Source: Trichodelitschia bisporula
Taxonomy: Eukaryota
NCBI GenBank assembly: GCA_010356995.1
Contig: ML996703.1
Coordinates: 248,001 to 312,000 of the forward strand
DNA: 64,000 nucleotides
Reading direction: 5' to 3'
The position numbers and the translations under genes were made by a program. The notes beneath the pieces were generated by a model, which made no database searches, was not told where the DNA came from, and saw only the letters and a program-made list of their open reading frames with translations. Below are positions 27,548 to 48,990 of this stretch, piece after piece. Each line of letters starts with the position of its first letter. Position 1 is the first letter of the stretch.

Positions 27548-29168
27548 ATGACCGTCACAATGGCCGACGAAAAACCAGATCCCATAACCCTCTACGCCGA
27601 GCTCCTAACCAACCTCCGCACCTGCACCTTCTTCGCCTCCCTCAACACCGACTCCAATGCCGAGACCCGCGCAACCATGGCCTCGGACGGCCAGACTGTC
27701 ACCGTCACGCACGAGGGGCAAGAAGCCACGATGCGTCTGCCTATGACTATGGGCGGTGGGGGTGAGGCTGCACTCATGTTGCCGGCAAATCCGAGTAAGG
27801 AGCTTACGATGCGCCTCGTGTTGACGGAGCGCGAGACGGGACTTATTTGCTTTGATGAGACAAGTGAGGACCTTGTGCCGTGGGGTGCGGACCGGGTTAA
27901 AGGACGGGTTGTGTGCCGGTGTGGACGAGAGCTCGTGCAAGGGGTGCAGGAGTGGAGGGATCTGCCCCGTGAGGGGTGGGCCGAGATGATGGATTTCTGG
28001 CATTGTCATAAGCCGCACGAGGAGGGCGACCACAAGGACGTGGCCGCGAAGAAGGGCTACGGCGCGTCGCGGGGCGTGACGGCCTTGGAAAGTATCGGCC
28101 TGGTGGGATTGACGTATTTCGTGGTCAGCGAGCAGGACTGTACGGGCATCAAGGCAAGTCGCTTCTTTCATTCTCAGTCTCGTAGTTCTCCTCCATAGCC
28201 GGGTGACCAGAAGGAGACCAGCCCGCCGTCCAGGCACACCCACGGCCACGTCTCCGATACTATCACCCAAGAGCAAATCGCGGCGCTACACAGGCGCGCG
28301 GGGTTTCTAACCGCCTTGCGAGAGGCTGGTTTTCCCGCGCGTAAGCACTTTCCGCCCGGCCGTTTCACCGTCCCTTTTGGAGCTGTAAATTGGCTACGGG
28401 ATTATTGGCTGGATACATTTCTTACAAGTCGCAGGCGGTTCCGTCAGGCAGCGATGGTCGCGCGAGGTTGCGGTGCGAGAAGTGTGATTCTGTTGTGGGT
28501 GTTGTGGATAAGTTGGCGGAGGGGTGGCGGTTGTATAAGTGGGCTGTGGGGGTGAAGACGGGGGATGAGGTCGAGACGTTCAAGGTGCAGAAGTGGGTTA
28601 CGGCGCTGCTTGGGGCGGGGATTGAGAATTCGGGTGGACGGCGGTTTGTGGTGGAGGATGAGGACGAGGGTGGGGAGAAGGGGGCGCTGCTGGTGAGTTC
28701 GGCTTCTCACTGCTACCTGTGCCGTCGGGCTGACTATCGCAGCTCTGGGTCTTCACCGACGACCTCGCCTTCTCCTCCTCCGTAGGCCACACCGAGCGCC
28801 AGGACCCAACTCGCGCAATGAAGATATTCTGGAAGCGGATACCCAACCCAAAGCAACTGCTCGAGGAGCATCACTTCCAATACGAGCACCTGCCGCTCCC
28901 TACGAACGTGTATACAGATATCGAGGCCACGCTCGAGCGCAGCGCAGACATGCTCCCCCAGTCTGCGCGCAAGTTCCAGGACTGGGACGTGGGGATGTTG
29001 GAGAAGTTCGGGAATCGCGATCTTGGGTTTGAGAGTGTGGAGGATGGCTCGGTGGAGGAGGCGACGGGGCAGATGAGTGGACTTAATATGGGGGAGATGG
29101 AGGCGATGGAGACGGCGGCGGAGAGGGAGGTGAAGATGGTTGAGGGGGGGGAGGGATTGTTGGAGTGA
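27548..29168 (+). CDS. IPA1: HECT_2 / E2C-binding protein (Ipa1/UBE3D family); introns 28154-28434 (GC-AG) and 28693-28742
   Basis: LYAELLTNLR, WRDLPREGWAEMMDFWHCHKP, CEKC...WRLYKW, LWVFTDDL, AMKIFWK, and the C-terminal LPQSARKFQDW. Confidence 0.85.
28199..28420 (+). ncRNA. Intronic box H/ACA guide RNA, snR81-like (U2 snRNA Psi42 guide)
   Basis: Hairpin 1 stems GGGTGA/TCACCC and GGAGAC/GTCTCC flank pocket AGAA + GATACTA; H box AGAGCA at 28270-28275, 14 nt from the pocket; 3' hairpin CCGGCCG/TGGCTGG; ACA box at 28415-28417 followed by TTT. Confidence 0.8.
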
Positions 29169-46186: not shown

Positions 46187-48990
46187 ATGAGCCTGACACC
46201 TGAGCCCTTCGATCTCAAGCACACCAACGGTACATTCTCACCGCTCTTCGGCGCCGACGTGTCTCGTCCACCTTTTTTTCGCATCGCTAACAGGTAGCAG
46301 TCAGTCGACCACAACTGGCACACAGCAACTCCAAGCAGAGTGTCGCAGCATCAGAAGACTACTACTCCTTCTCCGACAACGCTTCGGACGTCACCGAAGG
46401 CGGCGTCCGTCTCAATCCCTTTCACACACCCTCCCGCACACCCGAAGCCAGCTCCTCAGGACTCATCCGACCCATTGCGAGTCGTCAACGGCTCGCTGCT
46501 TCACCAAGCACCCCTCCCATCGAAGAAGCCATCGCGCGCGGCGCCATCGTCCCCCACACAAGATCAGAGCAAAAGTCGCTACTCGACACGCGTCGACCAG
46601 ACCCAATGAATCCCAACATCACTCCTGCCACCACGCCCGACGTGGACGACACGCCATACATCCACTTCGCCCTAGACCAGCTCACACGCGACGAAGAGGT
46701 GCGCGGATCACGGCGATACCCCGGCCATGAAGCCACCACACACGAGCTTGAACAGTCCGAGCACTCCCGTGGGGCAATTCTCCCATATGAAGAGGAGCAT
46801 CAGGTGGTGCTAGAACCGTCTGGCAAGGCTGGCAAGGCGCGTGTGTCGACGGAAAAGTCGCGGCCTTCGTTCGACGATGATCGCAGGGCCCCGGCTTACG
46901 ACGAGGAGGACATTTACGCGCAGGCGTTCGAGGAGGAATCGCCCAAGAGCAAACGCGATCTTGCCCAGCAGAAGGAGATGCAGGCTGGTCTGCCGCCGAA
47001 GCATCCCGTCCATGACCGTTCGAACTCTTCGACGTCAGTCGTCCAGTACGACGTCTTCATGCCGTACAACCCTCGCGTCGCGACCTACCAGTACCCCAAC
47101 CTCAACTTCCTTCCCGCCATCCTGCGCCCAGCTTGGCTCAGCTTGTTTATCATCATATGCGCTGTGATTGCAGGTGCGCTTATCTTCAGCGCCGTCTGGT
47201 CGCATTCGCACGACGGACTGATCGACTACCTCGACTTTGGTGATGCGCGGTACTTCGTTTTCCAGTACCTGCCGACCATGGTGGGCATGTTCGTGCTGCT
47301 TTGGTTGTTCCAGATCGAGACGGCCGTCCAGCGCATCTCGCCGTTCATGGCCATGGCCTCACCGTCAACAAAGTCCCGGACCCAGGGCGCCTTTCTCGAC
47401 CTCTATCCGACGCAATTTCTCGTCCCCAAGCTCCAGCACTTCCGGGCCGGACAGCCCATCATCGGAGTCTGCTTCCTCGTCTTCTGGCTCTTCCTCTTCA
47501 CCATTCCGCTACTGGCATCCGCATTCAACGTCCGCTTCATCGGCGCCGCCGCCTCAGGAGCCTGGCGCTGGATCGCAGTGCAGGGCGTCATTTGGACCGC
47601 AGCCGTACTCTACATCCTTCTAACCACCACCCTAATCCTCCTCGCCGCCAAGCTCTGGCGCTCCAGGACCGGTCTGAAATGGGATCCGCGCTCGCTAGCC
47701 GACATCATCGCCCTCATCGAGCGCGCCAACATCATGAACGACTACGTCGACACCGAGATCTTCGCCTCGCGCGCCGAACTGCGCCAGCGCCTCTGGACCC
47801 GCTCCGACCGCCTCGGGTACTGGCACACGAGCCGGCGCCCGCAGGACATTTTCTACGGGCTCGGTGAAGAGGGCGGTGCGACGCGCCGGTACTCCGTTGA
47901 GCAGGGCCGCATCCGCGAGAAGGTGCACCACCCCGCGTCGCGCTCGTCCACCAGCTCGTTCGGCGGCGACGACGTCGTCCGTCCCGAGCGCAGCTCCGTC
48001 GCGCGCGAGCGGTCCGATATGCGTAACCCGGACGTGCGCCGCCGGTACATGCCGTGGTTTCTGTCGTCGACGTCGATCCTGGCGCTCACCATCGTTGCCT
48101 TCGTCCTGCTCATCGCCTTCTACGTAATCGCCTTCCTAAAGCGCACGTCCACGCGCGGTTTCGACCCGCGCCTCGGAGCCACGGCGAACAAAGACGGTTT
48201 CTCAGCCGCAAACTTCACTTACTCCTTCGTCCCCGCCATCATCGGCTTCGCGCTGTACCTTCTCTGGCTCCCACTGGACCTGGCGCACCGACGCCTCGCC
48301 GCCTTCGCCGCTATGGCGGGGCCCAACGGCGCGAGCGCGGAGAAGAGCCTGCTCACTGATTACCCGTACCTGTTACCTGGGTCCGTGACGCTCAGCGCGC
48401 TCAGCAACGGGCACTACAAGGTCGCGCTCCTGTCCTTCATCAGCTTGACGAACGTCGCCATCCCTATCCTCGCGGGTGGCATCTTCTGGACGCAGTGGTA
48501 TCCGAACCAGAGCGCGCTGCGGGTGTCCGCCCATCCGGCGGGCCTGTACGCGCTGTGTGTTTTCCTGGCGCTGTATGCCGTGGGCTTGCTCGCGCTGTGG
48601 CCGGGGAGGCGTAGTGTGGCGCTGCCGCACGATGCGCGTTGCTTGGCGGAGTTGCTGAGCTGGGTGTACATGTCCCCGCTTCTGGTCGACCGGGCGTTTT
48701 CGCGGTGTGGCACGAAGGCGGAGCTCGTTGGCAGGTTGGTCGGGAGTGCGCCCGAGGGACCGCGCGGGTTCTTTGCCAGCATGGCGGATTTGGTGGGGAG
48801 TAGGGCGAGGGTGGCGGATGTGGAGAAGGGGCATGCGGGGGAGAGGCGCGGCGAGGTGAGGTATGGGTTTGGGGTATATGTGGGGAGGGATGGACTTGAG
48901 CATCTTGGGGTTGATAGGACGGTGAGGGCGGGGAGGCAAATGGTGCTTTTTGAGGGGGGGAGGGGGAGGGGGAGTTGGATGGGGTTTTAG
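46187..48990 (+). CDS. Multi-pass membrane protein, DUF3433-like; first exon 46187-46229, intron ending at 46297 or 46300
   Basis: Two hydrophobic multi-helix modules (FVFQYLPT..., FTYSFVPA...), TGLKWDPRSLAD, TPYIHFALDQLTRDEE; the frame extends upstream of the listed ATG to a splice acceptor. Confidence 0.7.

Follow-up and report, generated by a model that had tools for sequence, protein, structure and literature searches.

Pseudouridines that adjoin the branch-point-recognition sequence of U2 small nuclear RNA (snRNA) are conserved and affect splicing. Here we describe a predicted box H/ACA guide RNA for U2 that lies in the first intron of an IPA1/UBE3D-type gene within a 64,000-nucleotide (nt) stretch of Trichodelitschia bisporula DNA (GenBank assembly GCA_010356995.1, contig ML996703.1, positions 248,001 to 312,000), which we call the window and whose own numbering is used throughout. 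A functional counterpart is known from yeast, where the 5′ pocket of snR81 guides pseudouridine 42 (Psi42) of U2, leaving U42-G43 unpaired, and its 3′ pocket guides 25S Psi1051 (PMC6049503); a survey of the fungal small nucleolar RNAs (snoRNAs) described the snR81 family as specific to Saccharomyces, the one genus in which it was traced (PMC5824354). The equivalent U2 site of vertebrates (Psi41) is addressed by SCARNA4/ACA26 and by the 5′ hairpin of Xenopus SCARNA15, and both of these RNAs restore Psi42 in snr81-deleted yeast (PMC5733568).

The intronic RNA is predicted to work like snR81 and SCARNA4, and membership of the snR81 family is not claimed. Its pocket pairs with the same U2 flanks as that of snR81 and likewise sits in the H-box-proximal 5′ hairpin. 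The pairing, however, amounts to 7+7 base pairs (bp) in snR81 and to 4+7-8 in the window, and both the intronic location and an extra middle hairpin belong to the RNA described here. Rfam contains an snR81 model; by way of Rfam, no similarity in sequence or structure to snR81 could be detected at E ≤ 10, and the RNA does not fall under the covariance model of that family, while its 5′ pocket is predicted to target U42 when set against yeast U2. A preliminary description of this locus had called the RNA snR81-like, which holds for its predicted function and not for homology, given the missing Rfam match and a family traced only in Saccharomyces. Vertebrate SCARNA4/ACA26, Xenopus SCARNA15 and Drosophila scaRNA:PsiU2-38.40.42 all guide the U2 position equivalent to the target that we predict for the 5′ pocket (pocket 1), but they are animal Cajal-body RNAs, and their other pockets also target U2. 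Among fungal RNAs, pugU2-43/44 of Schizosaccharomyces pombe (SPNCRNA.1709) is likewise an H/ACA guide for this region of U2 and was likewise found by pocket complementarity, but it employs its 3′ pocket, addresses the two uridines downstream (yeast 44/45), and is encoded downstream of RPC10 rather than in an intron (PMC5473140). Gao, Jones and Rivas (2021) described 17 fungal RNAs as conserved, and one of these, named "H/ACA snoRNA intronic", resembles ours as an H/ACA RNA found in one host-gene intron across Pezizomycotina; its host, however, encodes a vacuolar sorting protein and its predicted target lies in small-subunit ribosomal RNA (rRNA), and it is a different RNA (PMC8216456).

For filamentous fungi, a study of Neurospora crassa predicted snRNA targets for none of 20 H/ACA RNAs (PMC2780460), and a motif look-up in its supplement 2 found the AAGAA...GAUAC pocket in none of the 20 published sequences. 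Two N. crassa RNAs, the intronic orphan ACA9 and ACA12, which contains AGAAGAACCG, were considered as counterparts and rejected by eye. No snRNA targets were predicted for the H/ACA RNAs of Trichophyton rubrum (PMC3890542), and the supplements of that study contain no matching text. Our literature search linked no snoRNA to introns of IPA1/UBE3D, nor did it bring up a U2 pseudouridine guide for filamentous fungi. A U2 pseudouridine guide for filamentous fungi is absent from the N. crassa and T. rubrum catalogues, from Rfam 15, and from the main text of the fungal snoRNA survey (PMC5824354), whose supplement may list one.

Conservation and covariation of the intronic RNA

We estimate at roughly 85% the probability that the intron encodes a conserved box H/ACA guide with a 5′ pocket for the U42-equivalent of U2, hosted by IPA1/UBE3D-type genes of Pezizomycotina. 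The RNA, of about 220 nt (roughly 28198-28420), is predicted to be a box H/ACA RNA with three hairpins (Table 1), and its anatomy agrees with all sequence-level rules for such guides. It has the hairpin-hinge-hairpin-tail architecture, extended by an additional hairpin that separates the H box from the 3′ hairpin. All features and coordinates given in the preliminary description were correct on direct reading; it had missed that there are three hairpins. The minimum free energy (MFE) fold of 28195-28420 yields the 5′ hairpin with exactly the pocket internal loop, the remainder folding as two hairpins.

The intron itself begins with GCAAGT at 28154 and ends with the acceptor CAG at 28434. Its proposed length of 281 nt and its GC-AG borders were confirmed by two runs, X1 and X4, which consist of assembled contigs whose RNA label is only guessed, though both contain spliced joints. 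These joints omit exactly 281 nt (intron 1) and 50 nt (intron 2). The cut of intron 1 has a 4-nt ambiguity, within which 28154-28434 is the sole register with GC..AG and none gives GT..AG. Intron 1 had also been described as much longer than the others, which holds in comparison with intron 2, the one intron to which the check extends.

The decisive evidence is comparative. Orthologous loci were collected from metagenome contigs with a profile built from 25 relatives, and the best 80 of 153 confirmed relatives were analyzed. Both flanking exons were matched in 60 of these 80 loci, with a gap between them of 274-479 nt in 59 and of 51 nt in the other (L065), so that a long intron at this site is the rule. 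A pattern combining the pocket and the H box was present in 74 of 81 sequences (the 80 loci plus the window). Among the seven without it, four loci reached the end of their contig upstream of the element, L059 was cut inside it, L070 has a variant H box, and the last was L065. When unique orthologous introns of at least 200 nt were considered, the pattern was found in 65 of 66, compared with 52 of 3300 dinucleotide shuffles (1.6%) and six of 66 reverse strands; outside introns it occurred 71 times in 614,858 nt.

R1, a covariance model that covers the 5′ hairpin and H box and was seeded with 60 unique sequences, matched the window at 28193-28277 with 61.9 bits and gave exactly one match in each of 75 of the 80 loci (E ≤ 1.3e-6). 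Four of the five negative loci run out at a contig edge, and the fifth, L065, lacks the long intron. Most of the matches are seed members, with L059, L070 and duplicates standing outside the seed. The sole other match in 393,793 nt, at 46910-46953 of the window, scored 13 bits (E 0.34) and is most likely noise. L065 is the only orthologue that has both exons but no long intron; it is the most distant one, with 28% identity in the best segment, and its RNA is located elsewhere or absent.

Covariation was assessed separately for the two outer hairpins. In a MAFFT alignment of the 60 unique orthologues, 82.3% of the cells of the 5′ hairpin were paired, against 70.4% in shuffles (reached in 0 of 500), and the covariation score was 0.378 against 0.200 (again 0 of 500); with the partners slid along the alignment, 30-45% of cells were paired and the score was 0.05-0.11. 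MAFFT misaligned lineages in which the upper stem starts with CCGG, for which reason the sequences were realigned to the covariance model; this gave 83.9% paired cells and a score of 0.399, in an alignment that leans to the structure. Pairs of the lower stem vary among G-C, A-U, U-A and C-G, and the upper stem is of a GGNG..CNCC type or, in the lineages nearest Elasticomyces, of a CCGG..CGG type. For the 3′ hairpin (42 unique sequences), the share of paired cells was 81.5%, compared with 65.6% for shuffles (0 of 500); the covariation score was 0.538 against 0.287, and double changes were seen at nine of nine tested pairs. RNAalifold, when run on the full-length alignment, returned no more than the 5′ hairpin and the upper stem of the 3′ hairpin. 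The preliminary description had proposed covariation among orthologous introns as a check, and this came out in its favor, with conserved boxes and pocket and covariation in both hairpins.

The spacing of the boxes is also regular. Counted from the first residue of the 3′ strand of pocket 1, the H box follows at 14 nt in 53 of the 60 unique orthologues, at 15 nt in six and at 16 nt in one, and it reads ANANNA in 44 of them. Counted likewise from the 3′ strand of pocket 2, the ACA follows at 14-16 nt in 39 of 42 sequences (15 nt in the window); the ACA is invariant in the alignment used (A2), partly by construction, as sequences were cut at an ACA. The distance from H box to ACA, measured automatically in 44 orthologues, was 136-169 nt (L080 is shorter), with about 140-160 nt in most orthologues, and the predicted middle hairpin is therefore a regular feature. 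This hairpin carries, in the window and in orthologues, a semi-conserved motif YTAYCC ... GGGTT, which in the window reads CTAACC and resembles a branch-site consensus.

A rough guide to the taxonomic spread is provided by the nearest named protein among 120 listed. For Pleosporales, the matches listed include Alternaria (92-99% identity) and Plenodomus, Ascochyta and Periconia (64-85%), for Leotiomycetes Hyaloscypha (54-95%), and for Sordariomycetes Verticillium (53%) and Colletotrichum (38%); others are nearest to Verruconis (49-58%), Patellaria (64%), Elasticomyces (42-66%), Xylona (38-51%) or Flavoplaca (35%). To judge from these sequences, the RNA is retained in the same IPA1/UBE3D-type intron over several classes of Pezizomycotina.

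Table 1. Features of the host gene and of the predicted guide RNA in the window (positions of the 64,000-nt stretch)
Feature	Position	Strand	Basis or remark
Exon 1, host gene (HECT_2 / IPA1-UBE3D type)	27548-28153	+	PF09814, E 3.8e-42, profile positions 1-194
Intron 1, 281 nt, GC..AG, host of the RNA	28154-28434	+	contig joints X1, X4
5′ hairpin	lower stem GGGTGA 28201-28206 / TCACCC 28263-28268; upper stem GGAGAC 28213-28218 / GTCTCC 28250-28255	+	MFE fold, covariation
Pocket 1, 5′ strand CCAGAA	28207-28212	+	AGAA pairs with U2 U44-U47
Pocket 1, 3′ strand GATACTA	28256-28262	+	pairs with U2 U35-C41
H box AGAGCA	28270-28275	+	14 nt downstream of 28256, where the pocket 3′ strand starts
Extra middle hairpin, H box to 3′ hairpin	28280-28355	+	MFE fold
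3′ hairpin	28356-28412; lower stem 28356-28362 / 28406-28412; upper stem from 28368, to 28399	+	constrained folds, covariation
Pocket 2 strands	TTTCA 28363-28367; GATTAT 28400-28405	+	constrained folds
ACA box, then TTT	28415-28417	+	sequence; distances: 15 nt from 28400, 2 nt from the lower stem, 17 nt to the 3′ splice site
CTTAC, putative branch site (degenerate)	28421-28425	+	nearest fit between ACA and acceptor
Exon 2	28435-28692	+	PF09814 profile positions 204-282; contig joints
Intron 2, 50 nt, GT..AG	28693-28742	+	contig joints X1, X4
Exon 3, including stop codon	28743-29168	+	PF09814 profile positions 285-369; translation

The 5′ pocket and its predicted target

Complementarity was scored against nt 31-78 of yeast U2, taken from the Methods of PMC4712673, and U2 positions follow yeast numbering. 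In this RNA, U42-G43 lies between GUAUC (37-41) and UUCUUUUCA (44-52) (PMC4712673). On the two sides of U42-G43, pocket 1 of the window shows 4+8 nt of complementarity, with AGAA on one strand and GAUACUAU, whose final pair is G-U, on the other. The pocket is thus bipartite, leaves U42-G43 unpaired and forms at least 8 bp in total; eight guide-substrate bp is the minimum for guiding in yeast (PMC6049503).

When the 60 unique 5′ domains were compared with yeast U2, the 5′ pocket strand formed 3-10 contiguous pairs from U44, and the 3′ strand formed 5-8 pairs from C41 in 58 sequences and none in two. Total contiguous complementarity was 10-11 nt in 40 sequences, 12-14 nt in seven, 17-18 nt in ten, 9 nt in one and 7 nt in two; counted over the pocket as a guide, 56 of 60 unique orthologues total 10 or more. 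The consensus of the 5′ strand is (A)AAGAA, extended up to CUGAAAAGAA, the complement of U2 44-53, and the 3′ strand is GATAC or GATAT in 58 of 60, extended to GATACTAC in loci L006-L009. The pockets of these last loci reach 9+8 nt, as the complement of U2 34-41 and 44-52; those of a second group (L038/L041/L043/L054/L055/L060/L066) reach 10+8 nt, covering U2 44-53 and 34-41 with two G-U pairs, and those of L045/L046/L051 reach 9+5 nt. In the larger pockets the extra residues track the U2 sequence on both sides. From this complementarity we predict, as very probable, that the 5′ pocket guides formation of a pseudouridine at the U42-equivalent of U2. The preliminary description had proposed an H/ACA guide whose 5′ pocket serves the U2 uridine modified by snR81, and conservation, covariation and box spacing lend this strong support.

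If instead the RNA were a genuine H/ACA snoRNA whose 5′ pocket serves an rRNA site or some other RNA, its match to U2 would be incidental, and it would be hard to see why complementarity should grow along U2 on both sides in separate lineages (9+8, 10+8, 9+5), or why the unpaired dinucleotide and the 14-nt spacing should match the arrangement of snR81 on U2. We regard such a substrate as improbable, even though the core match is merely 5+5 nt in many lineages, the rRNA of the host fungus lies outside the comparison, and the surveys of N. crassa (PMC2780460) and T. rubrum (PMC3890542) predicted no snRNA targets.

Several observations weigh against a conserved U2 guide at this locus. The target was assigned from yeast U2, together with the near-universal conservation of the U2 segment concerned, and not from U2 of the fungus itself. 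In the window, the 5′ pocket strand has just four pairing residues, with C in place of the consensus A, while L049/L050 and L067 have TATAC rather than GATAC, leaving 7 nt of contiguous complementarity. The H box ends in G (ANANNG) in 16 of 60 unique orthologues. Rfam, which the preliminary description had recommended as a check, gave no match in release 15, be it for the window (gathering score), for 28100-28500 (E ≤ 10) or for the 20 of the 80 loci that were searched (gathering score). Folding of the window sequence by itself does not reach significance (z -1.49, with 13 of 200 shuffles folding equally well), and the window on its own would therefore prove nothing. The sequences counted above were preselected by motif patterns, which makes the invariance of AGAA and GATA partly one of construction; this bias is addressed by the R1 model search and the shuffle control. 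As regards transcripts, X4 contains the spliced form only. X1 includes one unspliced contig of 337 nt (28126-28462) that starts in exon 1, spans all of intron 1 and ends in exon 2. This counts in favor of the guide, in that intron 1 is seen in RNA whereas intron 2 occurs in X1 only spliced; as the contig enters both exons, however, it represents unspliced transcript and is no proof of a mature snoRNA. Contigs of this kind cannot give RNA ends, abundance or protein association.

Splicing of the host intron and the host gene model

The preliminary description had further suggested that splicing and U2 modification could be coupled through the weak GC donor. This idea lacks comparative support, as 76 of 77 introns have GT as their estimated donor and the one exception, with GC, is that of the window; the weak donor is thus a species peculiarity and not a conserved design. 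The window has no CTRAY motif in the segment from ACA to acceptor. Among the 46 orthologous loci listed, 14 have the branch A of a CTRAY motif 8-10 nt after the ACA, and in other orthologues with a recognisable branch motif the distance is 41-159 nt.

These splice signals bear on the possibility that the element acts in cis, as an intronic structure through which splicing of the host pre-mRNA is controlled, maybe by pairing with U2 so as to favor or impede use of the nearby branch site, rather than as a modification guide. The GC donor of the window and its lack of a consensus branch motif would suit such a role, as would the branch A shortly after the ACA in 14 of 46 loci and the presence in X1 of unspliced intron 1, given that intron 2 is found there spliced only, without unspliced cover. 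Placement of H and ACA boxes 14-16 nt from two covarying pockets is left unexplained by it, however, and neither the ACA-branch distances of 41-159 nt elsewhere nor the ordinary GT donors of 76 of 77 introns fit, so we give this explanation little weight. That the hairpin and its box-like motifs arose by chance within a long intron, as the z-score of only -1.49 and the missing Rfam match might suggest, is already refuted by the comparative data, with the element found once per locus in 75 of 80 orthologous loci, the pattern in 65 of 66 introns as opposed to 1.6% of shuffles, and covariation in both hairpins.

With a modification guide as the preferred reading, the closeness of ACA and branch site in some lineages still leaves a small opening for a link in cis. 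Given an ACA just 7-10 nt ahead of the branch adenosine in several lineages and of the putative one in the window, one may ask whether the guide acts on, or helps to recruit, the U2 small nuclear ribonucleoprotein that splices its own host intron, which we hold to be improbable. If true, a nascent H/ACA ribonucleoprotein complementary to U2 nt 35-47 would come to lie directly next to the place at which U2 nt 33-38 have to pair, and U2 modification, assembly of the snoRNA ribonucleoprotein (snoRNP) and splicing of the gene for a messenger RNA 3′-end processing factor could be coupled.

The host had been named as an IPA1/UBE3D-type gene, in agreement with our results. Its three exons give 429 residues on translation and are colinear with Pfam HECT_2 (PF09814; 145, 58.1 and 60.8 bits, cut-off 22), the family that includes yeast Ipa1 and human UBE3D. 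P0001, listed as a hypothetical protein of T. bisporula, is identical to the product (100% identity for exon 1, across 98% of the query), whose next relatives have about 54-55% identity. At intron 1, the deposited P0001 (427 amino acids) reads "...GIKASRFFHSH/DGRARLR", passing the GC donor and using different splice sites (window 28154-28460). The RNA contigs join 28153 to 28435 and yield "...GIKAVPSGSDGRARLR", in conflict with this model. The public gene model thus appears to be wrong at intron 1, and our analysis corrects the deposited version, which avoids the GC donor. In metagenome gene calls (P0019, P0026, P0030, P0033, P0035, P0069, P0070, P0075 and P0107), exon 1 is read on into the intron and the snoRNA is translated. 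These "proteins" end in non-homologous strings, for example PIQSPKSNRL, in which codons have been read from the pocket, the lower stem and the H box.

The second pocket and implications for U2 modification

The 3′ hairpin would form a second canonical pocket, 15 nt from the ACA. The columns of its 5′ strand are U-U-U-C-A, each in 34-38 of the 42 unique sequences, and its 3′ strand starts with GA in 33 of 42 and is variable afterwards, the lineages differing as GAUUA, GAUAA, GUUUA or GAGAG. Stem-loop IIa of U2, which we take to be of the type ...UAAUC-UC-UGAAA in these fungi, would fit pocket 2 of the window. A literature search with the U2 loop strings that we assumed returned nothing relevant. 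It is conceivable, if unlikely, that both pockets target U2, with pocket 2 acting on a stem-loop IIa of this presumed type, which is a milder form of the link to U2 considered above; the RNA would then be a dedicated U2 guide in fungi akin to the small Cajal-body RNAs.

Searches for U2 itself found no U2-like 10-mer in 393,793 nt of fungal sequence. The yeast-type 20-nt U2 pattern was found in no stretch of the genome_contigs, and an 18-nt pattern in two stretches of the viral_contigs and 103 of the genome_contigs. The 14-nt core of the U2 stretch does recur in the literature on U2 of yeast, vertebrates, fish and plants. The records retrieved (L083-L132 and others) include prokaryotic metagenome-assembled genomes (MAGs) in which eukaryotic U2 snRNA genes stand in tandem, for example a 51,687-nt contig of a cyanobacterial MAG. 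A 100-nt portion of U2 recurs unchanged in 38 loci, and on one contig the copies are spaced about 1.37-1.38 kb apart. These arrays look like contamination from a host or other eukaryote binned into bacterial genomes. The contaminant U2 copies have the TTTAATCTC loop and other stem IIa sequences, none of which is yeast-type, and they therefore did not yield a target for pocket 2.

In the mechanism that we propose, the RNA would presumably be freed from the spliced intron and trimmed to a snoRNP-protected core, by analogy with other intronic snoRNAs, and packaged with Cbf5/Nop10/Gar1/Nhp2. Its 5′ pocket would pair with U2 on both sides of U42-G43, GAUACUA with U35-C41 and AGAA with U44-U47, and the U2 site so addressed would be the position guided by snR81 in yeast. 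The third hairpin would be an unusual feature of such an RNA.

On the evidence of the orthologous introns, we consider the predicted element to be a real and hitherto unannotated guide. As a U2 H/ACA guide it would fill a gap for filamentous fungi, and it yields a usable covariance model and a testable target. It would also show that a guide for this U2 position has been retained in one intron of an IPA1/UBE3D-type gene over several classes of Pezizomycotina.

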